Source: Terriglobia bacterium
Lineage (GTDB): Bacteria; Acidobacteriota; Terriglobia; JAIQFV01
Length of the DNA: 64,000 nt
Assembly (NCBI GenBank): GCA_020072965.1
Contig: JAIQFY010000009.1
Location: 9,649-73,648, forward strand
Reading direction: 5' to 3'
Below, piece after piece: positions 4,240 through 54,294 of this stretch. Made by a program: the position numbers and the translations under genes. Within the stretch, counting starts at the first letter, position 1. Each line of letters opens with the position of its first letter. The notes beneath the pieces are model-generated. The model ran no database searches and had not been told where the DNA came from. It was given only the letters and a program-made list of their open reading frames with translations.

Positions 4240-4342
4240 ACCGATTGGGGCTGTAAGTTCTCTTGTTCGGAAAGGATTCATCCCCGGACCTGTAAGGGCG
4301 CACAGCCGTGCGCCCCAGCCTATCATGAAACGGAATGCATGC

Positions 4343-4373
4343 GGGGGGCACCCGCCGCGGCGGGTGCCCCTAC
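4343..4373. repeat. REP-like perfect palindrome (GGGGCACCCGCCGCGGCGGGTGCCCC), family copy 1; a second hairpin GGGCGCACagccGTGCGCCC lies at 4298-4317
   Basis: Read directly from sequence. Lies between the convergent gene ends at 4239 and 4400. The same core recurs at 10559-10576 and 17444-17475. Confidence 0.6.
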
Positions 4374-4399
4374 AAACGCGCTCGACCTCCGCCGCAATC

Positions 4400-4756
4400 T
4401 CAATTCCTCTTTTGTCTCTCCATTTCATGCAGTTTCTGGGCAACGAATCTTGCCCGGGCGTAACCATTGAGAGGCAGCCTTTGCCTCTCACACCAAGCGC
4501 GGAATTCTTCCACAGCCACGGGTGTTTTCCAGACCTCAATCCCGGCTCTCAATAATTCACCCATTTTCTCCTCGGCCATGAGGGCCCATTCCTCATAGGT
4601 GTTCTCAATGATCTCAGGGTCCACCGCAAGTTCTCGCAACCGCTCCCATTGTTCCGGCCGATACCACGTGACGCCAACGTCTTTCTTCTCCTCACTATCC
4701 TCTTCGTCTTCATGATCCATGAACATGGGGGCCGCTCCTTGACGAGTGAAGACCAC
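4400..4756 (-). CDS. hypothetical protein
   Basis: 118-aa ORF with an acidic N-terminus (DHEDEEDSEEKKD). No family recognised. Confidence 0.45.
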   Translation of the reverse strand: MVFTRQGAAPMFMDHEDEEDSEEKKDVGVTWYRPEQWERLRELAVDPEIIENTYEEWALMAEEKMGELLRAGIEVWKTPVAVEEFRAWCERQRLPLNGYARARFVAQKLHEMERQKRN

Positions 4757-4911
4757 TGTACCCTTGGATAAGGGGTTCGTCGACAGGCCTCAGGATAGGT
4801 CTAATCGTCGGGACCAGACTGCATAGATGTGTTTCTTATCGCCTGGGTATTGTAGCTTATTCGAATTCTTGAGGGGGACTGGCTGTCTTGAATCGGGGAA
4901 GGAATGATCCC

Positions 4912-6708
4912 TCAGGTAGCATTCATTGAATACTGGGTCTCCGCGTTTAAGTCCACCGGGATCAAGGGAAGGGTGATTCGGAAGGTGGCACCGCCTTTCA
5001 AATTATTCTCGGCGGTGATCTTCCCTCCGTAGTGCTGCAGGATGGAATGACTCACACTGAGCGCCATCCCTGTGCCCTTCCCCACTTCCTTCGTGGTGTA
5101 GAAGGGTTCGAAGATACGGTTGGGATCCTTGATTCCGGGTCCATCATCGGAAATGGACACGAACGTGTTGTCGCCATCTATCCCCGTCGTGATGGCGATG
5201 GTCCCGCCGTCTTTCACCTCACGGATGGCGTCCATGGCGTTTTTCAGGATGCTTTGGATCACTTGGACCAGGCGATCCCGATTGACATTGACCCACATGG
5301 GATCGTGTCCGAAGCGCAATTTTGTATTGATATGAAAGGTCTGAAAATCCTTTTCAAATGGACTTAAGGATTCCACGACGAGATCGTTGACCTCGATGGA
5401 TTCCACCGCATGCTCGGGAACCCGGACAAAGCTCTGGAGACTTTCGACAATCTTCTTTGAGCGCGCCGCCGCCTGGAGGATGCGGTCGAATCGCTGACGT
5501 AATTTCGGATCGAGCGCCTTATCCTGCAGCGAGAGTTCAGAAAATCCCATGACGGTTGTCAGCGGGTTGTTCAACTCGTGGGCCGCCCCCGAAATCATCT
5601 GGCCGAGAGCGATGAGTTTCTCAGCATGCTGAAGTTGCCGCTCCATGGTCTTCATTTCGGTCACATCGCGACCCACCGTGAGTACGCCTGAGACCTGGTT
5701 CTCGGCATCGCGTACGGGGGACATGGAGATTTGCATGGAGCAGAGCTTCCCCTGGGGTGCCTCAAGCTGAACTTCCAGAGACTGCGGCTTCCCTTGAAAC
5801 ACCAGGGCCGTCGCCAGTTCCACCAGGCCGCGATCCTTCCCCCGCAGGAACTCGCTATAGTTTTTTCCCTTCAGCTCCTCTGAAGTCAGGCCCAATCCTT
5901 GCTCACACTTCTTGTTGGCCCATTGAAATCGGCCATTCTGGCCGATTACAAAAATGGAATCATTTGCATTGTCTACCAGGCTTTGAATGAATTCATGTTG
6001 CCTCACGGCATCGTCCCGGTGTTGTTGCATTGCAATTTTTTCCCATTCGAAGAGGTGGATGAGCATGCCCACAGCGACCGCCAGTCGCGCAAAGTCAAGG
6101 AACTGGATAGTAAAGGGGAGGATGAAGTTCCACCTCAGTAGAGCGCCAAAAGCCATAAGGCCCAGTCCTATCATTAAGAAACCGCACGCGAGGATTTGAA
6201 TGCCAATGGAATGGGCCTTCCGTCCAGCTCGAAGAAACACTAACGCGGTGAAAAGAACCAGGATACCCAGCAACAGCCCGAACTCCGAGAAGCGGTAAGA
6301 AACCAGCACCATCCGGACGTTAGAAGCGGTATTGGAACCGACGAAATTAGGAGATGGAGCGGTCGCATGATAGATCTGGAAGTAGCTTGTGACGGTAAAA
6401 AGGCATCCGAGCGCTGCGATGAGAATCCGGGAGGTCCGCAGTCCTGCAAAGCTGCGTGCGCTGAGAAAGAACATGATGCCGGCAGATGCGAGCAGGACCC
6501 GGTCGATAAATATGACTGTGTGTGACCTCGCCGGATTGATCAGAACGGCGACTTGTGACAAATACTGAAGCGTCAGGAGAAGCCAACCCAGCGTCCAAAG
6601 CTTAAAGAATGTTTCGTGCAGCTCCCGCCGGGAAAATACAAGAAATACGACGGTAACCAGGACAATGGCCAGAAAAGTAGTCAGTGCGTCAGCGAGATAA
6701 AAGTCCAT
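4912..6708 (-). CDS. membrane-bound sensor histidine kinase (multi-TM N-terminus, PAS, HisKA, HATPase_c)
   Basis: N-terminal hydrophobic segments. PAS-like region (FVIGQNGRFQWANKKCEQGLG). H-box HELNNPLTTVMGFSELS. G-boxes DDGPGI and GTGMALSVSHSILQHYGG. Confidence 0.85.
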   Translation of the reverse strand: MDFYLADALTTFLAIVLVTVVFLVFSRRELHETFFKLWTLGWLLLTLQYLSQVAVLINPARSHTVIFIDRVLLASAGIMFFLSARSFAGLRTSRILIAALGCLFTVTSYFQIYHATAPSPNFVGSNTASNVRMVLVSYRFSEFGLLLGILVLFTALVFLRAGRKAHSIGIQILACGFLMIGLGLMAFGALLRWNFILPFTIQFLDFARLAVAVGMLIHLFEWEKIAMQQHRDDAVRQHEFIQSLVDNANDSIFVIGQNGRFQWANKKCEQGLGLTSEELKGKNYSEFLRGKDRGLVELATALVFQGKPQSLEVQLEAPQGKLCSMQISMSPVRDAENQVSGVLTVGRDVTEMKTMERQLQHAEKLIALGQMISGAAHELNNPLTTVMGFSELSLQDKALDPKLRQRFDRILQAAARSKKIVESLQSFVRVPEHAVESIEVNDLVVESLSPFEKDFQTFHINTKLRFGHDPMWVNVNRDRLVQVIQSILKNAMDAIREVKDGGTIAITTGIDGDNTFVSISDDGPGIKDPNRIFEPFYTTKEVGKGTGMALSVSHSILQHYGGKITAENNLKGGATFRITLPLIPVDLNAETQYSMNAT

Positions 6709-6951
6709 GAGTGCTCCTGGCGGAAGATGGTTCCCCGCCCCTTCTGTCTATTTCTTCGACAAACAGGGGGAAAACTTTAGCAAATAATCATCCACCCGGA
6801 GAAATTGCCTCAAGGCATCATCATTCGTCAGTGTTCCATTGCCCCCCACCCGCAATTTCTTTATTATAAAGACGAATTCGAACTCCCTATCAATTCTCAA
6901 GCGGGCTTTGGCGATCCCCCCGCTCAACGCGAATTACGAAAGGAAAAAGGA

Positions 6952-8247
6952 ATGAAACCGCGATATTGGGTAATCCCAGCGGCCATAATTGCCATCACCG
7001 CCCTGCTGATGAATTTTTCGGCAAAGGCGAGCTATTCGCTGAGAGGAGCAATTCTGGCCTCAGAGCAGGGTGAAAAACCGGTGCCGCTATTCAAGATCCG
7101 CGCCATTACGGCTTTTGTCTCCATCGACCCCGGCCAGGTCGAGGAGGCGGTATCCGGGACGGTCCAGTTCCTGGAGAGAGCCCGGGATCGATTTCAGGCG
7201 GCCGGGTTTGAGGTTCAAACCATTCGACTGGCAACCCAACCTTTTCCGGATTATACGAAAAACATGTCACACCGTGCGGCGCTTGAACTGATCCAAAAAC
7301 TGGATCGATTGGCGGTGCAACACCACCTCGATTTATCCATCGGACCGGGAATTCTGGAAGACCGCGACGATCCGGAAGTGGTGGCCTTGATTACCGATAT
7401 TCTGTCCCATACCAAAACCACCAATGCCAGCGTGACCGTGGCTACCCCGGAGCGCGGGGTCCAACCAAAGGCGGTTCGCGCGGCGGCGCAGATCATGAAA
7501 AGTCTTTCTACTGCCTCCAAGGGTGGAATCGGGAACTTCAGTTTTGCCGCGGCAGCAAACTGTCCCGCCGGGATTCCATTCTTCCCCACCGCTTACCACC
7601 GGGGAACACAGAAGCAATTTGCCCTCGCCATTCAGAGCGCCAGCCTCGTTCAGGAGGCTTTTGCCCATTCCCTCACTCCTGCTGAAGCTCGTGCCAACCT
7701 GAAGAAGATCTATGAAACGCAATTGCATCCGGTTGAAGCCATCGCTCAGGGATTGTCGGAGGAGACCCGTTGGAATTATGAGGGGATGGATGTTTCCACG
7801 GCACCGTTGAAGGATGTCTCGATCGGAGCAGCTATCGAAGCCCTTTCGGGAGTTCCGTTTGGAGACCATGGCACGCTCACCGTTGCCGCCATGATTACAG
7901 ACGTCCTGAAGAGTTTGAACTTAAGACGCACTGGATATTCCGGACTGATGATTCCGGTCATGGAAGACGCCACGATCGCACGACGGGCCGCCGAAGGAAG
8001 GTTGTCCCTTGACAAACTTCTGCTGTTCTCTTCGGTCTGTGCCACCGGCATCGATGTGGCGCCGATTCCGGGCGATACCCCGTCGAATGAAATCGAAAGA
8101 GTCATATTGGACGTGGCCTCCCAGTCCACCAAGTTGAAGAAACCACTTGCCGTCCGGCTCCTTGTGGTTCCAGGAAAACAGCAGGGAGCCATGACCGATT
8201 TTGAAGATCCGTTCCTCGTCAATACGAAAGTCATGTCTGTGAAGTGA
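6952..8247 (+). CDS. DUF711 / UPF0210-family protein
   Basis: AGGAAA ribosome-binding site before the ATG at 6952. The ORF track starts at 6805, but MKPRYW fits better. IRAITAFVSID resembles the conserved N-terminal IRTITMGISL block of UPF0210 proteins; family call is from memory. Confidence 0.55.
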   Translation: MKPRYWVIPAAIIAITALLMNFSAKASYSLRGAILASEQGEKPVPLFKIRAITAFVSIDPGQVEEAVSGTVQFLERARDRFQAAGFEVQTIRLATQPFPDYTKNMSHRAALELIQKLDRLAVQHHLDLSIGPGILEDRDDPEVVALITDILSHTKTTNASVTVATPERGVQPKAVRAAAQIMKSLSTASKGGIGNFSFAAAANCPAGIPFFPTAYHRGTQKQFALAIQSASLVQEAFAHSLTPAEARANLKKIYETQLHPVEAIAQGLSEETRWNYEGMDVSTAPLKDVSIGAAIEALSGVPFGDHGTLTVAAMITDVLKSLNLRRTGYSGLMIPVMEDATIARRAAEGRLSLDKLLLFSSVCATGIDVAPIPGDTPSNEIERVILDVASQSTKLKKPLAVRLLVVPGKQQGAMTDFEDPFLVNTKVMSVK

Positions 8248-8398
8248 GCTTGGTACAATGGAGGACCTGAACAGGTTTAATCGATAGGACACGGAGAAAC
8301 ACGGATCACACGGACCTTTGATTATTAATAGATCACGTCCGTGTCGTCCGTGTGTTCAGCGTCCAAAATTTATCGAAGGACTCTTGAGGTGAGGAAGC

Positions 8399-9397
8399 TC
8401 ATTTTGGATTGCGAAGCTCATTCAGCGCCTGTTCGACATAGGGGCGAACCATTTGCTTGCGCCAGTACATGAGGAAATCGGTGTTGTCGAGGGGCTTGGC
8501 GACAGCATGCGCTGCGGCGGCTGCGGCGCGGATGGCGTTCTCATCCAAGGGGCGACCGATCAGGAGTTTCTGCGCCTCCGTGGCTTCCAACGGATGCGGG
8601 GCGATGGCGCCCAGGATGAGTTTCGCGTCCCGAACAGTCGCGTGATCATCTTCAAACCAAACACAGGCCGCGACACCGAGCACTGGGAAGTCAAACGCGC
8701 CCCGCCGCCTTAGTTTCGCATAGCTGGCGCGCCAACCATTGGCCGGAGGAAGCAGGATTTCGGTCAACAGTTCATCGTGCTGTTTCGTTAAATAATGAAT
8801 CCCATCGAACCGGGAATAGAGTTGGGCGATGGGAATGACTCGTTCTCTCCCGGGGGAGACTAGTTTGACCCGAACGCCCAGAGCGATCAGGACCGGAACC
8901 TCATCAGCCGATTGAACGGCCCAGCAGATTTTGGATCCTGGCGCCACCCAGCAGGTATCGCCGTCTTTCTTCAGGCAGAAATGGACTCCCTTGCGCCATT
9001 CGTAGTTCTGGTCATAGTAATTGCAGCGGGTATCCAGGAGCAAATTGCCCCCGAGCGTGCCCATGTTTTGCAGGATCGGCGTCGAGATGAGTCTCGCCGC
9101 CTGAGCGATAACCGGATAATATTTCTGAATAGTCCGATTCTCAATCAGTTCGGTCAGTGTCACGCCAGCTCCGACGCTCACGCCCGTGGTCGAAGCGGAA
9201 CCTGTGATTTTCTTTAATGCGGCAATCCGGTGTAAACCAATCACGACCTTGGGAGTCTGCTGGCGGCGCTTCATGTTGGGATACAGATCCGTCCCCCCCG
9301 CGACGAACTGTCCCTCGCGACCGGCCTCTGCCATGAGCTTCACGGCATCTGCAATTTTCCGCGGCGCATGATACTCAAATTTTGGAAGTCGCATCAT
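8399..9397 (-). CDS. xanthine-dehydrogenase-family FAD-binding medium subunit with HcrB-type [4Fe-4S] insertion (4-hydroxybenzoyl-CoA reductase beta-like)
   Basis: FAD-binding fold (FVAGGTDLYPNMK). Contains the insertion LLDTRC-NYYDQNYEWRKGVHF-C-LKKDGDT-C-WVAPGSKI-C (Cys125, 141, 149, 158). Its spacing C-x15-C-x7-C-x8-C equals that of the HcrB [4Fe-4S] ligands as I recall them (C122, 138, 146, 155). Confidence 0.8.
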   Translation of the reverse strand: MMRLPKFEYHAPRKIADAVKLMAEAGREGQFVAGGTDLYPNMKRRQQTPKVVIGLHRIAALKKITGSASTTGVSVGAGVTLTELIENRTIQKYYPVIAQAARLISTPILQNMGTLGGNLLLDTRCNYYDQNYEWRKGVHFCLKKDGDTCWVAPGSKICWAVQSADEVPVLIALGVRVKLVSPGRERVIPIAQLYSRFDGIHYLTKQHDELLTEILLPPANGWRASYAKLRRRGAFDFPVLGVAACVWFEDDHATVRDAKLILGAIAPHPLEATEAQKLLIGRPLDENAIRAAAAAAHAVAKPLDNTDFLMYWRKQMVRPYVEQALNELRNPK

Positions 9398-9412
9398 AAG
9401 GCGAGCCGTTCA

Positions 9413-10393
9413 TTATCGCTTAAATGGCAAATGATCCAAATCCACGTTCCCGCCGGACAGAATAATTCCGATCCTCTTGTCCGCAAATCCCGCAGCCTTT
9501 TTGAAGATCGCCGCCGCGACCGCCACGGCGCCGGATGGTTCGACAATGATCTTCATCCGCTCCCAAATGTGACGCATGGCTTCGATGATCTCATCCTCGC
9601 TGACAGTGACGATGTCGTCGACCAGTTTCTGGATAATCGGAAACGTTTTATCTCCGAGGGACGACCGGAGGCCATCCGCAACGGTCTGCGGATGAGCCTG
9701 TAAAATGATTTTTCCGGCTTGCTTCGATTGAAACGCATCGTCAGCGCCCTTGGGTTCGCATCCAATGATCCAGGTTTCCGGAGAAAGACCTTTCATGGCC
9801 AGCGCGGTCCCGCTGATCAATCCCCCACCACCCACGGGGGCCAACAACAGGTCCAACCCTTCTTCAACCTGCTCAATGAACTCCAGGGCGCAGGTTCCCT
9901 GCCCGGCAATAACGCGGTAATTATTGTAAGGATGGATGAGGACGGCGCCGGTTCTGGCCACGAGTTCATCCGTCGTCGACTCCCGCGCCTCCAGGGTGGG
10001 CTTGCAAAAGGTGATCTCACCTCCATAGTTGCGGATCGCTCCCACCTTCGGCGCAGGCGCATTCGAAGGGACCACGATGTACGCTTTAATCCCCCGAATT
10101 CTGGCCGCCATGGAAAGCGCGGCTCCATGATTGCCGGAGGAGTGAGTGACGACTCCTTTCGCCGCGTCCGTTTCATCCAGTGAGAGGACCGCATTGATGG
10201 CCCCGCGCGCCTTGAAGGCGCCCCCCTTCTGCAGGTTTTCGCATTTGAAGAAGACCTGGGCGCCGGCCATCTCGTTCATCGTCCGGCTCGTCATGACGGG
10301 CGTGCGATGGATGTGTGGCCGTATCCTCTCGAGCGCCTCGCGAATCGTCTCCAGGCCAGGTTGGGTTTCAGCGTTTATGGTTGGAGTTGTCAT
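9413..10393 (-). CDS. PLP-dependent threonine/serine dehydratase or serine-racemase-like enzyme (fold type II)
   Basis: FKCENLQKGGAFKARGAINAV lysine motif. Gly-rich loops VGGGGLISG and SGGNV. Sits between the large and medium XDH-family subunits. Confidence 0.8.
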   Translation of the reverse strand: MTTPTINAETQPGLETIREALERIRPHIHRTPVMTSRTMNEMAGAQVFFKCENLQKGGAFKARGAINAVLSLDETDAAKGVVTHSSGNHGAALSMAARIRGIKAYIVVPSNAPAPKVGAIRNYGGEITFCKPTLEARESTTDELVARTGAVLIHPYNNYRVIAGQGTCALEFIEQVEEGLDLLLAPVGGGGLISGTALAMKGLSPETWIIGCEPKGADDAFQSKQAGKIILQAHPQTVADGLRSSLGDKTFPIIQKLVDDIVTVSEDEIIEAMRHIWERMKIIVEPSGAVAVAAAIFKKAAGFADKRIGIILSGGNVDLDHLPFKR

Positions 10394-10426
10394 ATGAATT
10401 CAATCACACTTTCTTTCTGTGTCTCC

Positions 10427-10625
10427 ATGGTTTGGTAGCCCCGGCGAGTATTCTTCTCGCCGGGGGATTCTCCAGTTTGGGTAGTCCCGGTCCGAGGCGG
10501 CGTCCGCCATTATTGCTGGCGGATCGCCGGGGGGGGGGCCAGCTTTGGTAGCCCCGGCGAGCCCGCCGCGGCGGGCCGGGGGATCTTCCCCGCGGCTCAC
10601 AGAAGCCCCGGTTTGCCATAGCGGG
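10427..10625. repeat. intercistronic cluster of GC-rich hairpins including a REP-like palindrome GAGCCCGCCGCGGCGGGC (family copy 2) and a TTTGGTAGCCCCGGCGAG direct repeat (3-4 copies)
   Basis: Hairpins read from sequence: CCCCGGCGAGtattcttCTCGCCGGGG (10436-10465) and CCGCCAttattgcTGGCGG (10504-10522). TTTGGTAGCCCCGGCGAG sits at 10430 and 10543, with variants at 10471 and 10603. The whole block lies between the large-subunit stop (10655) and the PLP gene start (10393). Confidence 0.5.
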
Positions 10626-10654
10626 ACAACGGGCTACTCGCTACCCAATCCTCC

Positions 10655-13339
10655 CTACTCCCGCGCGTGGACGGCTTCACGCAGAATTTCCTTTCCCGTC
10701 CCCCCGTCCCAGGGAGGCTTGACACGGACGGGTTCCGGCCAATCCACCTCAGGGACTGACTTTGGCCCGTAACGGTGAGGCTCTTCGACCCCCCGGGTAA
10801 TGCCTGTTCCCCCGCCGTTGGCCGATTCCCCCTCATCTTCTTGTTTTTCGTCCCGCTTCTGAATCGCGGACAGAACTTTGTCGGGCGTGATGGGGACCTC
10901 ATCGATGCGCACTTGGACCGCATCATAAACCGCGTTGGCAATAGCCGGTGGGACCGGCAGCAAGGGTCCCTGTCCGACTTCCTTGGCGCCAAACGGCCCG
11001 TTTGGATCCGGATCTTCAATCAAGAACGTCTTCACGTCGCACATTTCCAGGGTCGTGGGCGATTTGTATTCGAGGAGACTGGGAAATTTGTGCACGACAT
11101 TCCGATTAGTGCGGTAGCTCATTTCTTCCATGAGCGCTTCACCTAATCCCATGTATACCGAGCCCTCCACCTGTCCCAAGGTCAAGGCCGGGTTAATGGC
11201 GCGTCCAATATCGTGCGCAATCCAGATTCGCTCCACCCGCACAATCCCGGTGCGCGGGTCAACCTCAACTTCGGCGACCGCCGCATCGTAACTGTAAGCA
11301 GGAGAGGGACCGACTCCCGCTCCCTTGTATTTTCCTGCGGAGGGAGGCGGCGTATAACTGCCGACGGTCCCAATGGTCCCGAACCTCGCCTCGGCGATTT
11401 GCACCGCCTCGGCGAATGAGATGGACGTCTCGGGATTCTCCACGTCGAATAACCGGCCCCCTGAAAGGGAAAGACGAGTGGCGGGAATGTTCATTTTTTC
11501 CGAAACCGCGCGGATGAGCAGATCCCGGGCGCGCTCGGCTGCCTCCAGCGCCGCATTCCCGGTCATCAGCGTTACCCGGGAGGAATAACTTCCTAAATCC
11601 ACAGGTGTGAGATCGGTATCCGCCGTGAGAACTCGAATGTCGAAGGGATCAATCCCGAGCACCTCGGCAATAATGTAGGCCAAGACCGAATCGGAACCCT
11701 GTCCGATGTCGATCGATCCGCACATCACACACACGCCTCCCTGACGGTCCAGCCGGAGCTGCACCCCGGAATGCGGCATGTGGTTCCAATAAATGGGAAG
11801 CCCGGCGCCGCTCAGGTAGGAGGCACACGCCAGTCCTATGCCTTTTCCATAGGGGAGGTTTCGGAATTTGTTCTTGAAGTCGCTCGCCGTGACCACCTTG
11901 TCGATGCAGGCTGCCAGCCCCATCGAGCCAACCCTCAAGTAGTTTGAGGTGAGCGAATAGGGTTCCACCAGATGGTTCTTGCGTATTGCCACCGGATCGA
12001 GACGTAACTGTTCCGCGATTTTGTCGAGGTGAACCTCAAGGGCATAACGGGGCTGCGGGGTTCCGTGCCCTCGCTTGGGCCCGCAGGGCGGCTTGTTGGT
12101 GAACACACGGACGCCTTCAAACTTGTAATTCGGGATTTTGTAGGTCACCGTCTGCAACGCCCCGGTGTAATAAGTGGAAGCAACGCCATAACTGCCATAT
12201 GCCCCGCCATCGAGGAAGGAGCGGAAGTGCATCGCGGTAATGGCGCCATCTTTCTTCGCCCCCGTCTTCACCCACATGAGCACGGGATGTCGTCCCCGGT
12301 GGCAATAGAATACCTCTTCCCGCGTCAGGGTCACTTTCACGGGACGGCCCGTTAACAGGGCAAGTTTCGAGACAATCATTTCGTGGGGAAAAGGGTCACT
12401 CTTGCCGCCAAACCCGCCGCCATTGGGGGTCGCAATGACCCGGATACGGCTAGCCGGCATTTCCAGTACTTTCGCAAGTGCCCGGTGGACATAGTGCGGG
12501 GTCTGCGTGGAGCTCCATAAGCACAGCTTGCCGTCGCCATCGACCTGGGCCACGGCGGCGTGCTGCTCCATGGGAAGGTGCGTATTGCCTTCGTAAAAAA
12601 ATACATCCTCCCGAATCAGATCGGCCTGTTTGAATCCTTCTTCCACATCGCCAAACTCGAGGGCGACCATCTTGTGAACATTGCCGTGATCCCCATAGCC
12701 GTGAATGCGCCAGGCCTCTTTGTTCTCTCCGGCAAGCTGGGGGCCGCCGGTCCTTGAAGGATTATCGTCCATATGGGCGGAACCCGGACTTCTCAATGCA
12801 TCCTGTATCGAGGAAATGACCGGCAAGGGATCGTACTCCACTTCGATGGCATTCATCGCCTCAAATGCCGCGTCCTCATCGATGGCGGCCACGGCTGCCA
12901 CTGGATCACCGATCATGCGGACCTTGTCGAGGCACAGCGCGTGTTCGTCCTGGCTGACCGGTAAGATGCCATATGGAATCGGAAGAGACTTTCCCGTGAT
13001 CACCGCAACCACGCCGGGCATCGCTACGGCTTTGGACGTGTCAATTTTCCGAATGAGCGCATGGGGAACGTGACTGCGCAGGATCTTGCAGTAGAGCATA
13101 CGCGGCAACACGATGTCGTCGGCAAATTTCGTTTGCCCGGTTACTTTGGCCGAGGCATCCACCTTGCGAAACGGTTTGCCGACCACCTCGAGATGTTTTG
13201 AGCTTCCGTTTTTCATGAGATGAACCGGATAAGGTTTGGTAGCCGTGATCCGCCCGCTTTTTGGCGGATCACGGGTTCTTGTGACCTGCATACAAAAGCC
13301 CGCGATCTCCGCCACGGCGGACGGGATCACGGCTACCAA
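10655..13339 (-). CDS. xanthine-dehydrogenase-family molybdopterin-binding large subunit (HcrA/CoxL-like) with a ~85-aa low-complexity C-terminal tail
   Basis: 894 aa. N-terminal KHLEVVGKPFRKVDASAKVTGQTKFADD block and downstream a/b hammerhead and MoCo-binding blocks typical of CoxL/XdhB. The real start may be the internal MKNGSS. The tail DEKQEDEGESANGGGTG...PPWDGGTGKEILREAVHARE is atypical. Confidence 0.85.
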   Translation of the reverse strand: MVAVIPSAVAEIAGFCMQVTRTRDPPKSGRITATKPYPVHLMKNGSSKHLEVVGKPFRKVDASAKVTGQTKFADDIVLPRMLYCKILRSHVPHALIRKIDTSKAVAMPGVVAVITGKSLPIPYGILPVSQDEHALCLDKVRMIGDPVAAVAAIDEDAAFEAMNAIEVEYDPLPVISSIQDALRSPGSAHMDDNPSRTGGPQLAGENKEAWRIHGYGDHGNVHKMVALEFGDVEEGFKQADLIREDVFFYEGNTHLPMEQHAAVAQVDGDGKLCLWSSTQTPHYVHRALAKVLEMPASRIRVIATPNGGGFGGKSDPFPHEMIVSKLALLTGRPVKVTLTREEVFYCHRGRHPVLMWVKTGAKKDGAITAMHFRSFLDGGAYGSYGVASTYYTGALQTVTYKIPNYKFEGVRVFTNKPPCGPKRGHGTPQPRYALEVHLDKIAEQLRLDPVAIRKNHLVEPYSLTSNYLRVGSMGLAACIDKVVTASDFKNKFRNLPYGKGIGLACASYLSGAGLPIYWNHMPHSGVQLRLDRQGGVCVMCGSIDIGQGSDSVLAYIIAEVLGIDPFDIRVLTADTDLTPVDLGSYSSRVTLMTGNAALEAAERARDLLIRAVSEKMNIPATRLSLSGGRLFDVENPETSISFAEAVQIAEARFGTIGTVGSYTPPPSAGKYKGAGVGPSPAYSYDAAVAEVEVDPRTGIVRVERIWIAHDIGRAINPALTLGQVEGSVYMGLGEALMEEMSYRTNRNVVHKFPSLLEYKSPTTLEMCDVKTFLIEDPDPNGPFGAKEVGQGPLLPVPPAIANAVYDAVQVRIDEVPITPDKVLSAIQKRDEKQEDEGESANGGGTGITRGVEEPHRYGPKSVPEVDWPEPVRVKPPWDGGTGKEILREAVHARE

Positions 13340-13370
13340 ACCACTTCGGGATTGAAATGTCCCTGTACGT

Positions 13371-13916
13371 CTATGATTTCAGCCCGTACACAACTTCCTC
13401 GGCGACCTCTGCCTTTTCCCCGCGCATGTGGGCCGCTGCCAACTCGACCGCTTCGTAAATCTTGATGTAGCCCGTGCAACGGCACAGGTTGCCTGACAGC
13501 GCCTGGGCAATCTCTTCACGGGTCGGTTTTGGATTCTTTGCAAGTAATTCCAAGGCGGTCAGCAAGAATCCGGGGGTGCAGTAGCCGCACTGGGCGGCGC
13601 CGAGATCAGCAAACGTTTCCTGGAGCGGGTGCAAGCGGCCCTCCGGCAATTGCATTCCTTCCACTGTCGTGACCTCGCGGCCCTCGGCATCAAGCCCCAG
13701 GACGAGGCATGAGAGCACCGGCTTGCCGTCCAGGAGCACCGCGCAGGTCCCACATTCGCCCAGTTCACAACCGTGCTTGGTTCCGGTGAGATTCAGATCT
13801 TCGCGCAAAACTTCCAGCAGGGTCTTATGAGGTGCAAACGCAACTTCACACGGCTCCCCGTTCAGGACGAAGGCAATATGCGCTTTTTGTTTCCGAATCT
13901 TCCTTCTCTGTTTCAT
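13371..13916 (-). CDS. (2Fe-2S)-binding small subunit of the xanthine-dehydrogenase-family enzyme (HcrC/CoxS-like)
   Basis: Plant-type cluster motif GTKHGCELGECGTCAV and a second cluster motif CGYCTPG...CRCTGY. Confidence 0.9.
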   Translation of the reverse strand: MKQRRKIRKQKAHIAFVLNGEPCEVAFAPHKTLLEVLREDLNLTGTKHGCELGECGTCAVLLDGKPVLSCLVLGLDAEGREVTTVEGMQLPEGRLHPLQETFADLGAAQCGYCTPGFLLTALELLAKNPKPTREEIAQALSGNLCRCTGYIKIYEAVELAAAHMRGEKAEVAEEVVYGLKS

Positions 13917-13955
13917 CGTCTTTTGGTTCCCGGCCTCTTTGCGCCCCGGTCGTTT

Positions 13956-15371
13956 TCATAACCGAACATACTCGAATTCGAAGGGCTTGCCGCCGACGCC
14001 GCTCTTAGGGGGAGCAATCCAATTGGCAATCTTCCCCGGGTCGGTGACGGGTTTCATCAACTCGCGCACGTAAGCGCGGTCCTCTTGACCGGGCAGCCAG
14101 TGGGGGGCCTTCGCCTCATACTCTTCTTCCGAGATCAAGTTGCCCCCAAGATCGAAGTTATGGTTGGCGAATTCACCCTGATGGCGATGAAAACGGGTGG
14201 AGGGAAGGACCAACCTTGCGGAGATGCCTTCTTCCTCCAGCGCCTTGTTCCATCTTGCCAGACCGCGTTCGCAGTCTTTGACATATTCGCCACGCAGCAC
14301 TTCGTTCAACGCATTCCGGAGCGGAACCTCTTTCGTGGCAAGCTTTCCGTTCTCGATCACGGTCAGCGAATAGGTGGCGTCGCTGATCACGTGGTCCTCA
14401 TATTTCTTCTGTTCGAGATAGCGTCCTTTCAAGCCGGCCGAAAAGAAGTCCGCTGCGTTGGAAGAGATTTCTCCGCCGAAGAGGTCAAGTGAGTAGCTGT
14501 ACCAGAAATTGATGTAGCGCTGGATGATGGAGAGGGGGATGCCGTTGAGCGCCCTCACCTCGTCGTCGCCCTGATTCTTCGTCTGCTTCATCAGCTCCGC
14601 CGTCCGCTTCACAATGCGCTCCAGGCCTGACTCGCCCACAAACATGTGGTGCGCTTCTTCGGTCAGCATGAACTGGCAGGTGCGGGCCAGTGGCTCAAAA
14701 CCCGACTCCGCCAGGGACGCGAGCTGATACTTTCCGTCGCGGTCCGTGAACATGGTAAACGCGTAGAAGTTCAGCCAGTCATCACACGGCTGGTTGAAGG
14801 CGCCCAGGATCCGTGGCTTGTCGGTGTTGCCACTCCGGCGCTGGAGCAATTCTTCCGCTTCTTCACGGCCGTCGCGTCCGAAGTATTTTTGGAGGATGTA
14901 CACCATCGCCCACAAGTGTCGCCCCTCCTCAACATTCACCTGGAACAGGTTCCGCAAATCGTACATTGAAGGGCATGTGACACCCAGACGTCGTTGCTGC
15001 TCGACGGAGGCCGGCTCAGTATCGCCTTGGGTTACGACAATGCGCCGCAGCGCGTTGCGAAACTCCCCGGGGACTTCCTGGTACGCCGGATGGCCGCAAC
15101 CGTCTCCAAACCCGATGGTGGCGTTCGTCTTCGAAGGATTCAGGAAGATCCCCCAGCGATATTCCGGCATCTTGACATAACCGAAATGCGCCCAGCCTTC
15201 GGGTTCCACAGACACAGCGGTTCGAAGATAAACATCGTATCCCTGAAACCCCTCCGGCCCCATCTCGTTCCACCAGGACAGGAAATTCGGAAGCCATTTT
15301 TCCAGCGCGCGCTGAAGCTGGGGATCGTTGCTGAGATCGACATTGTTGGGAATTTTGTCAAATACGCTCAT
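13956..15371 (-). CDS. boxB: benzoyl-CoA 2,3-epoxidase (oxygenase) component B, diiron enzyme
   Basis: 471 aa. N-terminus MSVFDKIPNNVDLSNDPQLQRALEKWLPNFLSWWNEMGPEGFQGYDVYLRTAVSVEPEGWAHFGYVKM closely matches BoxB as I remember it. Two E-x-x-H diiron motifs: VEEGRHLW and TEEAHHMF. Confidence 0.85.
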   Translation of the reverse strand: MSVFDKIPNNVDLSNDPQLQRALEKWLPNFLSWWNEMGPEGFQGYDVYLRTAVSVEPEGWAHFGYVKMPEYRWGIFLNPSKTNATIGFGDGCGHPAYQEVPGEFRNALRRIVVTQGDTEPASVEQQRRLGVTCPSMYDLRNLFQVNVEEGRHLWAMVYILQKYFGRDGREEAEELLQRRSGNTDKPRILGAFNQPCDDWLNFYAFTMFTDRDGKYQLASLAESGFEPLARTCQFMLTEEAHHMFVGESGLERIVKRTAELMKQTKNQGDDEVRALNGIPLSIIQRYINFWYSYSLDLFGGEISSNAADFFSAGLKGRYLEQKKYEDHVISDATYSLTVIENGKLATKEVPLRNALNEVLRGEYVKDCERGLARWNKALEEEGISARLVLPSTRFHRHQGEFANHNFDLGGNLISEEEYEAKAPHWLPGQEDRAYVRELMKPVTDPGKIANWIAPPKSGVGGKPFEFEYVRL

Positions 15372-15442
15372 TGATGCTCCGTGTGAATCATTTCCTCTTG
15401 CCGGCGGCGTTTGAAGACTGCACGCGCCTTGCGTTCCGGCTC

Positions 15443-15552
15443 ACGAAGTCAGAGTTCAGAAGTCAAAAGTCGGAGGTCAGATATCAGAGATCGTGCTCCT
15501 TGCGCTCTTAAATCTGACTTCCGACTTCTGACTTCTGACTTCCGACCTCCTT
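15443..15552. repeat. imperfect ~45-nt-arm palindrome built from TCRRARG/GACTTCY heptamers, intercistronic between boxC and boxB
   Basis: Left arm GAAGTCAGAGTTCAGAAGTCAAAAGTCGGAGGTCAGAT. Right arm ATCTGACTTCCGACTTCTGACTTCTGACTTCCGACCTCC. Period 7, read from sequence. Confidence 0.6.
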
Positions 15553-15561
15553 TGAAAATCT

Positions 15562-17259
15562 TCATGTTCTTCGAAAATCGAATTTCGCTTTTGTCGGTTT
15601 CCCGTAATTCGTCAGCCCTCCATGTTCGCCAACGGCGTTGGGCCGCTGGAAGATCCAATTCTGCCACGCGGTGAGACGTCCATAGATCTTGGTCTCGGTG
15701 GTTTCCGGGCCGGCAAATCGCAACGAGGCTTCCATGCCGGTCAGGGCGTCGGGCGACAGCGAAGTGCGCTCTTCGATAGCAACGCGAATCTCATCGTCCC
15801 AGTCCAGGCCGTCGGGTGCCAGAGTCACGAGTCCACCTTCGAGCGCGGCGTCGGCAGAGAACCGAGCGGGAGGCTTCAACGCAGCCTCGATCCGGGCGTT
15901 ATCGTTGAGGAAACGGGATTCCAGGCGCGAAAGGCCATTCGACATGGGCAGCGCGCCGGCGTTCATCGAAGTAGTAGCGATTTTAATCGCTTGATCCGGG
16001 TCGTTTCGCATGTAGGTTCGATCCGAAGCGAGGGCAAGTTCCAACAGATTCCCCGCGAAGCAACTCCCCTCTTCAATTAAAGCAAAGAAACTCTTCGCGG
16101 TATGATCCATCCGGCGCAGGACGCGGCCCATGTGGAGAATTATCTCCCGCACCAATCCATGGTCCCGGTGGGATGAGAGCATTTCATCGATCCGATGGAT
16201 GGCGTCAATTTCGCCGTGAGTGCGGACAATCACCAGGCCGATTTCCGGCTCGTTGAAGCGCAAGTGTAGCAGCGCATCATCCAGCTCACGATAAGCCGCC
16301 AGGGCCCAGAACCGGTCTCCCCATTCCTGGATCCGCACGGCGGAATCGGGCTGGGGATCAGCGGGAGCACGCAGCGTCAGATTGGCGATCCGCGCCTTCC
16401 GGTTGAGCTGAAGGGAAACGTATCTGTATTCCCGGCCGCTCTCAGTAATCTGAACCTCAAGGGGATGCAGCTTGATTCCCTTGGGGGGCGTCGATCGAGA
16501 GGGCTCGTCGCTGGGACTGGATTGAATTTCAGCCAGTAGATGATCGATCCGGGAGGTCACCGCTTGGTCAAATTTGCTAGTCGGGAACGTGTCATCTATC
16601 AGGCCCCACTCTTTCGCACGCTTTCCTTTGATCCCTTCCGCGAGGGTGCAGAAAACATCAGCGCGGTCCCGGCGCACCTTGCGCTTATCCACCAGCCGGG
16701 TCAATCCTCCGGTCCCCGGCAGGACCCCCAGCAGAGGCACTTCCGGAAGCGAAACCGCCGAGCTGCCGTCGTCCACCAGGTAAATTGCGTCACACGCCAG
16801 CGCCAGCTCATATCCCCCACCCGCGCACGTCCCGTTGAGCGCGGCGACAAAACGGATGCCCGAAAACCGGGAGGCCTCTTCCATGGCGCAACGGGTCTCG
16901 TTGGTGAACTTGCAGAAATTGACCTTGAAGGGATGGGAAGAACTTCCGAGCATGTAGATATTGGCGCCGGCGCAAAACATGCGCGGCTTCAGGCTCTTCA
17001 CGACCACGACGCGCACCTCGGGGTGTTCGAAGCGGATGCGGTTAAGGGCATCGGCCAGCTCGATGTCGACGCCGAGGTCATAGGAATTCAATTTCAGCTT
17101 GTACCCCTCGCGCAGGGGCGAATCTTCCTGAACATCCAGTCCCAGCGTGGCGACTTCACCTTCCACGACCAAATTCCAGTGCCGGTACTGTCCCGGAGTA
17201 GCTTGAAACTCCACCGGCCGCTCGGCCGTCTGGGGTGGCGGGGTCACTGGAATCGGCAT
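15562..17259 (-). CDS. boxC: 2,3-epoxybenzoyl-CoA dihydrolase (benzoyl-CoA-dihydrodiol lyase), crotonase superfamily
   Basis: 565 aa. YRHWNLVVEGEVATLGLDVQEDSPLREGYKLKLNSYDLGVDIELADALNRIRFEHPEVRVVVV matches the BoxC N-terminal block. Two crotonase-like halves. Confidence 0.85.
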   Translation of the reverse strand: MPIPVTPPPQTAERPVEFQATPGQYRHWNLVVEGEVATLGLDVQEDSPLREGYKLKLNSYDLGVDIELADALNRIRFEHPEVRVVVVKSLKPRMFCAGANIYMLGSSSHPFKVNFCKFTNETRCAMEEASRFSGIRFVAALNGTCAGGGYELALACDAIYLVDDGSSAVSLPEVPLLGVLPGTGGLTRLVDKRKVRRDRADVFCTLAEGIKGKRAKEWGLIDDTFPTSKFDQAVTSRIDHLLAEIQSSPSDEPSRSTPPKGIKLHPLEVQITESGREYRYVSLQLNRKARIANLTLRAPADPQPDSAVRIQEWGDRFWALAAYRELDDALLHLRFNEPEIGLVIVRTHGEIDAIHRIDEMLSSHRDHGLVREIILHMGRVLRRMDHTAKSFFALIEEGSCFAGNLLELALASDRTYMRNDPDQAIKIATTSMNAGALPMSNGLSRLESRFLNDNARIEAALKPPARFSADAALEGGLVTLAPDGLDWDDEIRVAIEERTSLSPDALTGMEASLRFAGPETTETKIYGRLTAWQNWIFQRPNAVGEHGGLTNYGKPTKAKFDFRRT

Positions 17260-17322
17260 CTGGTCATCCTCCGGGATTATAGTGAGATACGCAGTATATT
17301 ACAATTTGACATCGGCAACAAG

Positions 17323-17340
17323 TGCAATATAATGCATGCG
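17323..17340. promoter_or_regulatory. candidate BoxR/BzdR operator: TGCA-N6-TGCA (TGCAATATAATGCATGCG) in the boxC/boxR divergent region
   Basis: TGCA repeats spaced by 6 nt. The embedded ATATAAT is a -10-like hexamer. BzdR-type regulators are reported to bind TGCA-containing repeats; function here is inferred. Confidence 0.35.
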
Positions 17341-17443
17341 TACCTTGAATCGCGGCCGTGCTGGATGCGGTCGGCGTCAGCGCCCAAAGACTAATACAAA
17401 CGTGGGAAATAGAGTTACATGGAGTAATGGTGGATTGTTCGCT

Positions 17444-17475
17444 GTAGGGGCGCCCGCCGCGGCGGGCGCCCCTAC
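17444..17475. repeat. REP-like perfect 32-nt palindrome GTAGGGGCGCCCGCCGCGGCGGGCGCCCCTAC, family copy 3
   Basis: Read from sequence. Located in the boxC-boxR divergent promoter region. Confidence 0.6.
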
Positions 17476-17541
17476 GTTGAATCATGCACGATGTTGTAGC
17501 ACTTTCAAGGGCGATCGAATTAGCCTCCAGAAAAGCGGGAC

Positions 17542-18342
17542 TTGGTCAACATGTCGAACCAAAGAGACTTCCTGTCAGCCATCGGAGAGCGCGTCCGTAA
17601 ATTGCGTCGCGCGCGCGGGTGGACCCAATCGCAACTGGCGGAGCGAGCCCAGCTTTCTCCCCGTTTTCTGGCCCAACTTGAGGCGGGAGATGGAAACATC
17701 TCCGTACTCCGTTTGGCGCAAGTGGCCGAGGCGTTGCACCAACCCTTGCGCGACCTGATCCCAAGTGTCTCCCTGACCGAAAGAAAGCCGGGCGGTCAAG
17801 TTCGTGGCCGCAAGCAGATCATCGCTTTGATTGGTCTCCGCGGAGCCGGAAAGACCAGTGTGGGCATTCAGTTGGCCGGACGACTCAAGCTGCCCTTCGT
17901 TGAATTGGACTCCCTCATTGAGAAAGCTGCGCTGATGCCACTGGCCCAGATCTTTTCTCTTCATGGAGAAGGCTACTATCGCCGGCTGGAGTATCAAACA
18001 TTGAAAGAGCTATTGCGGAATCCCAAGCCGATCGTACTCGCGACCGGGGGATCGCTCGTGACGGATCCGCGCACGTGGAGCCTCGTCAAGCAATCCTGCA
18101 CCTCGGTCTGGTTGAAGGCCACTCCCGAAGTTTATTGGAACCGCCTTCTCAAGCAAGGTGACACGCGGCCGATGAAGAACAACCCCTCCGCTATGACTGA
18201 GCTTCGTGCTCTGCTGGCGGCCAGGGAACCCCTCTACGGGCAGGCCGATCACATCATCGATACTTCGCGCCTCTCACTTGGTGAGGCTACGGAAGGCGCG
18301 CTTCACGCCCTTGGGATGGATGCGCTCAGTAAGGATGGATAG
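17542..18342 (+). CDS. boxR: BoxR/BzdR-family transcriptional regulator (N-terminal XRE HTH fused to shikimate-kinase-like effector domain)
   Basis: HTH block RKLRRARGWTQSQLAERAQLSPRFLAQLEAG. P-loop GLRGAGKTSVG and a shikimate-kinase fold. Divergent from boxCB. Confidence 0.8.
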   Translation: MVNMSNQRDFLSAIGERVRKLRRARGWTQSQLAERAQLSPRFLAQLEAGDGNISVLRLAQVAEALHQPLRDLIPSVSLTERKPGGQVRGRKQIIALIGLRGAGKTSVGIQLAGRLKLPFVELDSLIEKAALMPLAQIFSLHGEGYYRRLEYQTLKELLRNPKPIVLATGGSLVTDPRTWSLVKQSCTSVWLKATPEVYWNRLLKQGDTRPMKNNPSAMTELRALLAAREPLYGQADHIIDTSRLSLGEATEGALHALGMDALSKDG

Positions 18343-18575
18343 GGCGGGTGGACGGGGTGACGCACACATCGCGTTTTGTGTGATGTGTGCGAGTCATTAG
18401 ATTGAATGCAGTTCCGTCGTGGGTTCAGAAAGATGTCTCTGGAGATTCAAAGGAAACTGGTATAAGGAAATGAGTTGGTTCAGGAATGAAGGGCTTATGA
18501 CAAATGTTTCCCACAGAAGAAGGACCGCACACATGCCAAGAACGCCTATGTGCGCCACCCGGCCGATCCTACCGA
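18343..18575. repeat. copy A of a duplicated ~230-bp non-coding element (begins with hairpin CGCACACATCGCG..GATGTGTGCG and contains GATGTCTCTGGAGATTCAAAG)
   Basis: Aligns block-wise with 58075-58300. Shared hairpin, a shared 21-mer, and a shared ...CGCACACAYGC.AAGAAC.C.T.TGCGCCACCC segment. No conserved ORF between the copies. Confidence 0.5.
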
Positions 18576-19717: not shown

Positions 19718-19998
19718 AGTCTTCTTGTCGCCGACTAACTAATACAGGGAAAGATGAATTCTTTTCGGGTCAGATAACGACCTTAAATGATCCAACAAAT
19801 TTTTGATTGCCCCTTCAGGGCAAACCACGAATGAATGATGATCATCCCTCCCAGGGCGGCGCCCTGGGCTTTTGAAGGCCGCCCTTTCAGGGCAGGCGAA
19901 TAGGTATTGGCATCTCTGACACGGACAAGATCCGATAAAACATGGGGGGGCAGGCACCGACATTCCACGACTTCAGTCGTGCCTGCTCGGAACACCCC

Positions 19999-20031
19999 CC
20001 TCTTTCCCGGGCTTAAGCCCGGGAAAGAGGA
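19999..20031. repeat. perfect palindromic hairpin CCTCTTTCCCGGGCttaaGCCCGGGAAAGAGG
   Basis: Read from sequence. Lies in a repeat-rich intergenic zone next to hairpins sharing a CGACT-N3-AGTCG core. Confidence 0.4.
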
Positions 20032-25533: not shown

Positions 25534-25969
25534 ATTAGGATGGATTTTGCAATTAAGAGAGTAAACAAAGCATCCCGCAGCGAGCGGGATACCTGTCCGC
25601 CCTCACGGGGATGGTTTGGAATTTCGGTTGAAGAATTCAAAAAATAGTGGCTGGCTTAGACCTGATTTCCGAATTTGCCAGCCATTCTCTTGTTCAGTTC
25701 GTTTGCATGGGGAAAGGTTGAAGTGATTCTGCCTTGGCACAAAGGGTGATGCCGCCCGCCAAGGCGGGCTGCGTGGTTGAAGGCTGGTGCCCTCCTGGGG
25801 CTCGCGCCCCAGGCTATTTCATTTCGCCGCTGTGCGGCTTTAAGTATGGATCCAACTCCGGAACGCGGGTTGAAATCCGAACACGCTTCGAACCCTTGAC
25901 TTCTCACCCTATGCCAATAATTAGCTGTCCCCCGTTGACGTGGTCTATACCTTGGCGCCGATTCCATTC

Positions 25970-45393: not shown

Positions 45394-45529
45394 GTCAGCC
45401 GGCGTCGGTCTTCACACCCTTCATTTCCAAGAATGTCAACCGCTCCGGAATGCCGGAGTGATTCTTATTTTTACCAGGATTCCTAAGTTGGCCCCTGTTT
45501 TAAGCCGCGCAGCGGCGAAATAAAGTAAC

Positions 45530-46262: not shown

Positions 46263-46315
46263 ACTCTAAACCGACATGTTCAAATGTCTATCACCCTCAA
46301 GAGATTACGCACTCT

Positions 46316-53996: not shown

Positions 53997-54294
53997 GGCA
54001 CATCCAAGAATAAAGGAGCAAGCCTTTCAGCCGGGACTTGCTGAAAGCTGATTGCTGATAGCTGATCGCTGACAGCTGTTCACTTCAAAAAAATACCCCA
54101 TGCATCTTCGTTGGAAAACGCACGGGGCAATAAACTTTGTCCACGGGCCCTTTGACGCGAAGAGCACAACTTTGGAGTCGTGAACCTGAAGGAACAAAGC
54201 CGTTGAGCATCGCTATGGATGCCAGTCCTTCGGCTTCAATCCCTGGGTTTCGCTGGTTCCAGGCAGGTCTCCTGACTTGACCACTCTCGGTTGC

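Follow-up and report, generated by a model that had tools for sequence, protein, structure and literature searches.

Three GC-rich palindromes that share the 14-nt core CCCGCCGCGGCGGG lie in a 64,000-nt stretch of DNA (hereafter the window; G+C content 56%) from a metagenome-assembled genome (MAG) of an uncultured soil acidobacterium of the Terriglobia (Acidobacteriota). Identical MAG contigs, annotated as Acidobacteriia/Terriglobia, are present in ENA, Logan and NCBI. A first-pass annotation of this DNA had described them as a genome-wide family of perfect 32-nt palindromes resembling repetitive extragenic palindromic (REP) sequences, placed between convergent genes, between cistrons and in a divergent promoter. 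All three gene contexts are as claimed. Specifically, copy 1 (4345-4373, minus strand) separates the convergent genes for an M28 peptidase (plus strand, stop at 4239) and a conserved 108-aa open reading frame (ORF; minus strand, stop at 4400), after which lies a histidine kinase gene. Copy 2 (10561-10576) separates two minus-strand cistrons, a PALP-family gene and the gene for the large subunit of a molybdenum (Mo) hydroxylase. Copy 3 (17444-17475, strand-neutral) occupies the divergent region between a boxC-like gene (minus strand, start at 17259) and a boxR-like gene (plus strand, ATG at 17551), whose product joins an HTH-XRE domain to a shikimate-kinase-like protein in the manner of BoxR and BzdR.

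The core is found without mismatch only at 4351, 10562 and 17453 of the window, which bears out the three copies first described and the details given for them. When up to two mismatches are allowed, there are four matches against 0.74 expected, and a count of four was reached in none of 100 dinucleotide-preserving shuffles. The three copies differ in extent. Copy 3 is a perfect 32-nt palindrome, GTAGGGGCGCCCGCCGCGGCGGGCGCCCCTAC, laid out as GTAG-GGGCGCCCGCCG|CGGCGGGCGCCC-CTAC with a tag at each end, and its arms extend weakly beyond this (33-nt arms at 79% complementarity). Copy 1 is a perfect palindrome of 26 nt (4345-4370) with a single tag: CTAC stands at its right (4370-4373) and CGGG, not GTAG, at its left, so that it reads GTTTGTAG-GGGCACCCGCCGCGGCGGGTGCCCC on the minus strand. 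Copy 2 is a perfect palindrome over 16 nt only, held within a stem CCCCGG...CCGGGG and preceded by TTTGGTAG; it forms the apical part, or tip, of a repeat unit of the TTTGGTAG family that we call unit C (10544-10582). Because copies 1 and 2 fall short of a perfect 32-mer, the description of a perfect 32-nt family was overstated. The placement of copy 2 in a cluster with a second repeated motif is confirmed; that motif, TTTGGTAGCCCCGGCGAG, occurs twice, at 10431 and 10544.

A covariance model of the palindrome (R1), built from a seed of 28 acidobacterial copies, gives three matches over the whole window, namely copies 3, 1 and 2 at 57.5, 51.2 and 21.3 bits, respectively. By the same search, the adjoining 8 kb on the left side contain no copy, such that about 72 kb of this organism holds two full copies and one partial copy. 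Predicted RNA folding energies are -39.1 kcal/mol for copy 3 (z = -6.6), -31.3 kcal/mol for copy 1 and -24 kcal/mol for copy 2. An Rfam scan of positions 4200-17600, even at E ≤ 5, yields no relevant match to the palindromes.

The distribution of the element was established by scanning 185,579 species, represented by one genome each, for the 24-nt core GGGCRCCCGCCGCGGCGGGYGCCC. The species of the window lies outside this collection, as is evident from the lack of any locus that resembles the window over more than the element. The scan recovers 71 loci and never more than three in one genome. Acidobacterial carriers belong to Terriglobia, Ca. Acidiferrales/Acidoferrum, Acidobacteriaceae and gp2; carriers elsewhere include Arthrobacter/Pseudarthrobacter, Streptomyces, Clostridia, Gemmiger, Dehalococcoidia and others. 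An assembly or adapter artefact is ruled out, given that complete genomes of isolates also contain copies and that the flanks are particular to each locus.

The two groups of carriers differ in how the core is dressed. GTAG or CTAC stands at one end or both in 17 of the 27 acidobacterial copies and in one of the 46 copies from other phyla. Perfect pairing extends past the 24 nt by a mean of 2.3 nt in Acidobacteria and 6.2 nt elsewhere, where longer palindromes, different at each locus, enclose the core. A run of T or A adjoins the stem in 8/27 and 11/46 copies, respectively. The full 32-mer is found at five independent loci, all of them acidobacterial, with one per genome. One position of the stem varies between purine and pyrimidine (the R/Y pair), and its changes are compensatory in 69 of 73 copies (41 A-T and 28 G-C, the rest being two G.T and two A.C); likewise, the variants GCAG..CTGC and ACAG..CTGT preserve pairing.

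Copies recur in many Terriglobia MAGs, in short intergenic regions that lack homology to one another. The flanks of the acidobacterial copies are mutually unrelated, except for one orthologous pair (L044 and L053) and a module that the window shares with locus L006. Neighbouring genes are functionally diverse, with products that include an amino-acid permease, FtsZ, an aminotransferase, M1 and M48 peptidases and TonB-type outer membrane proteins. Most copies lie 11-35 nt from a stop codon; placement is thus extragenic and mainly downstream of ORFs, with copy 3 in its divergent region as the exception. When 255 kb of related loci were searched with R1, a single full-length copy (L039 966-1005) came to light besides the seed copies, along with weak core fragments of 12-16 nt and no scatter of diverged copies. 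This makes the family a discrete one with few copies rather than a large diverged population, and the proposal that it extends genome-wide is not supported by the related genomes, which have at most three exact cores each. A scan of viral contigs with the 24-nt core gave 0 matches and for this reason is unusable as a control for chance recurrence.

In Arthrobacter and Pseudarthrobacter, the 24-nt core is central in perfect palindromes that reach about 46 nt (GTTAAACACTTGGGGCACCC...GGGTGCCCCAAGTGTTTAAC) and show conservation among many species of Arthrobacter (L005, L007, L011, L015, L019, L022, L032, L033, L036, L037, L046, L047, L051, L062, L064 and others). These long palindromes probably are bidirectional terminators. 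We infer that the bare GC core in other phyla would be an ordinary strong hairpin that recurs, and that the tagged form would be the genuine acidobacterial family.

Relatives reveal lineage-specific gain or replacement at each of the three window sites. Syntenic relatives of the first two sites were obtained through homologs of the M28 peptidase (L087, 87% amino acid identity; L088, 83%; L089, 74%). At the site of copy 1, L087 keeps the flanks and an upstream hairpin, and a non-palindromic stretch of 38 nt replaces the palindrome; in L088 and L089 the whole segment is missing, leaving intergenic regions of 116 and 71 nt. At the site of copy 2, L088 carries two TTTGGTAG units. Relative to these, the window cluster has one unit more, unit A, which amounts to a clean, unit-length indel of 46 nt, and unit C aligns to the second L088 unit, with the loop CGTCCTTCTCG there and the core CCCGCCGCGGCGGG in the window. 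The corresponding region of L089 is 39 nt long and has no repeats. For copy 3, a metagenome scan with the boxR-like protein returned only two useful orthologs, L075 and L076, the latter too diverged to compare. The L075 locus (71% ortholog) retains the promoter and a TGCA-N6-TGCA motif, has a 5′ untranslated region (UTR) shorter by about 125 nt, and has no palindrome. We also note that the ORF beside copy 1 (4400-4726, minus strand), with its counterpart in L087 (7451-7768), is a conserved reading frame of 105-108 aa that has no Pfam match and accompanies the palindrome segment; the whole stretch of about 550 nt that comprises this ORF and the segment is missing from L088 and L089.

We think it fairly probable that the palindromes form a low-copy, Terriglobia-specific subfamily of GTAG-tagged REPs with the consensus GTAG-GGGC-R-CCCGCCGCGGCGGG-Y-GCCC-CTAC. 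The REP-like nature proposed at first pass is upheld: the copies are extragenic and palindromic, they have the GTAG foot typical of REPs, and one of them stands in a cluster like those of bacterial interspersed mosaic elements (BIMEs). The foot is also more common in the window than expected: GTAG or CTAC lies directly at the foot of 4 of its 57 perfect hairpins against 0.25 expected (P ~1e-4), and GGTTTGGTAGCC occurs four times with at most one mismatch. A generic scan for GTAG next to a fold was too noisy for statistics and was used just to select clear examples. In the full copies the two tags pair together, and in copy 2 the tag situation is that of the TTTGGTAG-headed unit around it.

Several observations weigh against this assignment. 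The full copies are tagged at both ends, with the tags paired, rather than at a classical single unpaired foot. Copy number is low, with no more than three exact cores per species-representative genome, whereas classical REPs exceed 100 per genome. The identical 24-nt core is not lineage-specific, and its presence in Arthrobacter, Streptomyces, Clostridia and others means that the core alone can arise or persist without REP biology. Finally, no cognate REP-associated tyrosine transposase (RAYT) was found in the window or in the 71 palindrome loci, and the Y1 transposase gene that the window does hold carries another repeat.

Alternatively, the palindromes might be GC-rich terminator or 3′-end hairpins that converged on one sequence within the limited space of G/C stems with CGCG tips, where chance and selection would bring back the same stem, and not a mobile or dispersed family at all. 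The identical 24-mer in at least eight phyla, set within longer palindromes that are particular to each locus and reach 46 nt in Arthrobacter, is what this account would predict, as are the T and A runs beside some stems and the position of most copies shortly past a stop codon. Even so, we regard this explanation as unlikely. Stem stability leaves the bias in tags unexplained, and no T-run follows and no A-run precedes any of the three window copies, all of which are omitted by a terminator scan. Moreover, copy 3 is located in a divergent promoter or 5′ UTR, where no terminator is needed, and at the site of copy 2 the 14-nt core has been swapped into an existing hairpin with no gradual change.

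The control region that holds copy 3 bears on two further explanations. A sigma-70 promoter that matches the consensus at 12 of 12 positions (TTGACA-16-TATAAT; 17306-17333, plus strand) precedes the boxR-like gene, and copy 3 is situated about 105 nt downstream of this promoter and its predicted transcription start and 76 nt upstream of the ATG at 17551. From the position of the promoter, copy 3 would therefore sit in the 5′ UTR of the boxR-like gene. Back to back with the 12/12 promoter, the boxC-like gene has a promoter with a 10/12 match (17304-17276, minus strand), and both are conserved in L075. Around copy 3, a module of 113 nt (17395-17507, plus strand) is 81% identical to a Terriglobia MAG locus (L006), where it lies between two HGD-D-family genes. 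The similarity includes exact 11-mers and 10-mers outside the palindrome, with about 40 nt conserved on each side and flank motifs GAGTTACATGG ... TGAATCATGC. The module falls within the approximately 125 nt that are missing from the boxR ortholog locus L075. One possibility is that it constitutes a transferable 5′-leader cassette common to aromatic-catabolism clusters.

More generally, copy 3 could be the central stem of a larger unit of about 115-130 nt, either an element like a miniature inverted-repeat transposable element (MITE) or a transferable leader or attenuator cassette. The resemblance to L006 in a different gene context, the absence of a segment of similar length from L075 and the weak extension of the arms are consistent with such a unit, which we nevertheless judge improbable: there are just two examples and no further copy in any fetched locus, neither terminal repeats nor a target-site duplication were identified, and all the other palindromes have unrelated flanks. 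Least likely of all is that the palindrome is an operator for the adjacent BoxR/BzdR-type regulator or some other dimeric DNA-binding protein, an idea that accommodates the perfect dyad, the high conservation across genera at one to three copies per genome, and the place of copy 3 in the boxC/boxR control region with flanks conserved in the L006 catabolic cluster, but that conflicts with the compensatory R/Y changes, which speak for pairing rather than base-specific protein contacts, and with the other copies, which adjoin unrelated genes and mostly their 3′ ends. An operator for BoxR itself is ruled out. The published BoxR/BzdR binding motif is TGCA-N6-TGCA (PMC6449761), that is, TGCA repeats at a 6-nt spacing (ATGCACTATAGTGCAT-like), and the palindrome lacks TGCA; a canonical site that fits this motif, GTGCAATATAATGCAT, is found elsewhere (17322-17337), overlapping the -10 box of the 12/12 promoter, and L075 keeps this site in a region that has no palindrome.

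The GTAG-tagged REP subfamily that we favour shares the window with a second REP family, defined by a 10-nt head, GGTTTGGTAG, that is followed by highly variable stems. Heads occur on the plus strand at 10431, 10476 (as TTTGGGTAG), 10544 and 13235, and on the minus strand at 13342. Three plus-strand units make up a tandem cluster (10429-10582) in the Mo-hydroxylase operon. Unit A (10431-10466) reads TTTGGTAG-CCCCGGCGAG-tattctt-CTCGCCGGGG; unit B (10476-10539) reads TTTGGGTAG-TCCCGG...GTCCGCCAttattgcTGGCGGAT...CCGGG(G10) and is orthologous to the first L088 unit; unit C, which includes copy 2 and scores 21 bits with R1, reads TTTGGTAG-CCCCGGCGAG-[CCCGCCGCGGCGGG]-C-CGGGGG. The subtype of unit C recurs at an unrelated locus (L090 12433) as TTGGTAG-CCCAGGCG-CCCGCCGTGGCGGG-CCTGGG. 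Clusters of the GGTTTGGTAG type are also seen in relatives, and some are larger (L088 13611-13700 and 16363-16473, L089 21260-21440, L090 12370-12710).

The same operon contains an inverted dimer (13233-13342) of GGTTTGGTAG-tagged hairpins whose tags lie at the outer ends, an arrangement like that of the REP doublets known as REPINs. The dimer is kept in L088 and missing in L089, which has an intergenic region of 24 nt, and the apex of its left unit is CCGCCGTGGCGG in the window and CCGCCGCGGCGG in L088. In the minus-strand unit (13300-13332), one G.T pair would correspond to G.U in the sense mRNA and to an A.C mismatch in the opposite strand, a weak hint that structure matters at the RNA level. 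The dimer is bounded by the stop codon of the Fer2-subunit gene (13371) and by an ATG on the minus strand (13216-13214) that opens the N-terminus MKNGSSKHLEVVGKPFR. This ATG probably is the true start of the large subunit, in which case the called N-terminus of the 891-894-aa gene is a translated REP dimer and the call begins too far upstream. The gene call for the large subunit in L088 is over-extended through the repeat in the same way.

Copy 1 also has a partner, the hairpin GTAA-GGGCGCAC-agcc-GTGCGCCC (4292-4315, plus strand), with which it forms a pair 29 nt apart with the tags outside. The L088 equivalent of this partner is a nested hairpin, GTAG-GGGGC-aca-GTCCGCCccggGGCGGAC-GCCCC. Dimers or clusters are thus present at 10431-10582, 4292-4373 and 13233-13342, and copy 3 stands alone, as do most copies in relatives. 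Comparisons of unit C with L088, of the L090 unit and of the nested L088 hairpin indicate that the CCCGCCGYGGCGGG core behaves as an interchangeable apical module within the second local REP family, in keeping with the modular stems and self-complementary loop inserts known from GTAG REPs (PMC3733652).

An extension of this observation is that the CCCGCCGYGGCGGG palindrome acts as a plug-in, copied into the apices of existing GTAG-footed hairpins when a Y1 enzyme targets their loops for nested insertion or conversion. We consider this unlikely. The cases that suggest it are unit C set beside the second L088 unit, the nested L088 hairpin GTAG-GGGGC[GTCCGCC..GGCGGAC]GCCCC and the CCGCCGCGGCGG tip of the L088 dimer. 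If true, REPs of Terriglobia would grow hairpin-in-hairpin, and the GTAG-GGGGC, TTTGGTAG and Acido-Lenti-1 repeats would be substrates of one family of enzymes that reads GTAG.

The first-pass annotation had further proposed an association with an IS200-like gene at 45703. At this position, ORFs 45703-45927 and 45765-46154 are the halves of one frameshifted 150-aa Y1 protein (frameshift near 45850) that matches Pfam Y1_Tnp at 1e-27. Intact 150-aa homologs are known at 75-84% identity. Contigs in NCBI, ENA and Logan all encode the identical truncated product (P0005, 99 aa), and the frameshift is therefore not an error of a single assembly. The protein scores 74 bits against the NCBIfam IS200 model (cut-off 55) and 34 bits against REP_Tyr_transpos, below the cut-off of 80. 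By sequence the gene scores as an IS200 TnpA, yet its inverted-repeat flanks are as in RAYT loci.

These flanks consist of two inverted doublets, in which CCTGRGGC-N4-GCCYCAGG is followed by CTAC or TTAC, together with a GTCCGCCWWGGCGGAC hairpin; a third such doublet stands without a gene at 25754-25813. The first hairpin type of the doublets is the Rfam family Acido-Lenti-1 (RF01687), which matches at the gathering threshold at 45503-45548 (minus strand), 25794-25839 and 19850-19894 (both plus strand), and below it at 46215-46265 (plus strand). The same kind of units, reading (TC)GTAG-CCTGAGGCGYRAGCCTCAGG ... GTCCGCCTTGGCGGAC, surrounds Y1 homologs of 49-80% identity at four other loci (L081, L082, L084, L085), sometimes in tandem arrays. 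The palindrome under study is not among the flanks of the Y1 gene (45703-46154). Furthermore, neither a hidden Markov model (HMM) of the full-length sequences (140-170 aa) among 76 Y1 homologs nor tblastn with the window protein detected a Y1 or RAYT gene in the 71 palindrome loci, and tblastn with an approximate E. coli YafM sequence, which can serve as a lead only, found nothing near the palindromes. The proposed association is therefore unsupported, and the gene at 45703 is ruled out as the cognate transposase, as its flanks hold the other repeat and the four homolog loci are alike. The only feature common to the palindrome and Acido-Lenti-1 classes is the GTAG foot. If a REPtron for the palindrome family exists, it would be a Y1 gene flanked by inverted GTAGGGGC palindromes.

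Acido-Lenti-1 itself merits separate comment. Inverted, outward-facing copies flank the Y1 gene, a GTAG/CTAC foot is present, and copies that lack a gene are dispersed. On this arrangement, Acido-Lenti-1, typed in Rfam as a small RNA (sRNA), has the appearance of a REPtron's REP and not of an sRNA gene, and our literature search found no paper that describes it in this way.

Three other features of the window may be recorded here. A further hairpin repeat has two copies with conserved flanks (18354-18397 and 58080-58124; GGGGTGNCGCACACATCGCG...GATGTGTGCGAGTCAT). A different perfect 32-nt palindrome, CCTCTTTCCCGGGCTTAAGCCCGGGAAAGAGG, occupies an intergenic position (19999-20030) about 100 nt from an Acido-Lenti-1 copy. 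Lastly, a cobalamin riboswitch (RF00174) matches at the gathering threshold, at 99 bits, on the minus strand (54245-54438).

How might GTAG-tagged palindromes of this kind spread and act? They could move as single-stranded DNA hairpins handled by a Y1 HUH enzyme of the RAYT type that reads the GTAG tag and the stem, a route proposed by analogy with TnpA-REP of E. coli (PMC3479197; PMC6006769). Alternatively, gene conversion between hairpins could distribute them. Once transcribed, stem-loops with predicted energies of -31 to -39 kcal/mol might serve as barriers to 3′ exonucleases or as sites of pausing or termination, after convergent genes for copy 1, between cistrons for copy 2 and in the 5′ UTR of the boxR-like gene for copy 3. 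A role as terminators or mRNA stabilisers is plausible for the window copies.

To our knowledge, studies of REPs so far have almost all been made in Proteobacteria. The present data document a GTAG-tagged REP subfamily and a second, TTTGGTAG family in Terriglobia. The REPtron-like disposition of Acido-Lenti-1 around Y1 genes, if confirmed, would extend REP/RAYT systems to Acidobacteria and correct the annotation of an RNA family, and this side result may be more important than the palindrome family. There are practical consequences as well, as hairpins of this sort break assemblies and lead to gene calls that begin too far upstream, as for the large subunit at 13216; these two points leave the current understanding of how REPs work unchanged. 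GC hairpins break assemblies or attract errors at individual loci: two independent contigs terminate inside such palindromes (L003 1-25 and L075 1759-1776), and a contig that differs from the window at only two places over 13.4 kb (L002) has one of these differences within a palindrome (GTAGTGGC; L002 1548 region).

Among known systems, intrinsic terminators resemble the palindromes in having a strong GC hairpin just past stop codons, with T or A runs at some acidobacterial copies; they differ in that no U-tract accompanies the window copies and in that terminators are not marked by conserved GTAG tags. The REPs of E. coli, with their BIMEs and the RAYT TnpA-REP, likewise have GTAG beside a hairpin, form alternating or tandem clusters between cistrons and have been assigned the same roles in mRNA 3′ protection or termination (PMC2817692; PMC3479197). 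Those REPs are imperfect and bulged, number in the hundreds and flank their RAYT gene, whereas the stems described here are perfect and few, and the local Y1 gene is accompanied by another repeat. The inverted doublets at 13233-13342 and 4292-4373, and the changes in presence between relatives, recall the REPINs of Pseudomonas (PMC3116915), from which our family differs in consisting mostly of single palindromes. Acido-Lenti-1 (PMC2864571) occurs in the same genomes as a dispersed, intergenic, GC-rich hairpin followed by CUA(C), which is the GTAG foot on the other strand; its stem sequence is different, it has a second hairpin, and it flanks the Y1 gene in inverted orientation.

The closest parallel is with the superfamily of GTAG-tagged REPs, in which stems and loops are modular, loops can carry self-complementary inserts, dimers form with the tags outside, and placement is downstream of ORFs (PMC3733652). 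In that survey, Acidobacteria are not among the GTAG-REP hosts listed in detail, and only tyrosine transposases flanked by terminal inverted repeats are reported for them (PMC3733652). Unlike those REPs, the elements described here are perfect palindromes with zero loop, often with tags at both ends that pair together, in very low copy number, and with no REPtron that carries this repeat in the window or the 71 loci. Regardless of these differences, and most of all with respect to the long-stem group GTAG-24, the likeness is extensive: an extragenic palindrome of 20-40 bp whose GC-rich stem, 12-16 bp long, has GTAG at its foot, the coexistence of families in one genome, modular loops that may be self-complementary, and a mixture of singletons, tags-outside dimers and clusters that lie mostly downstream of ORFs (PMC3733652).

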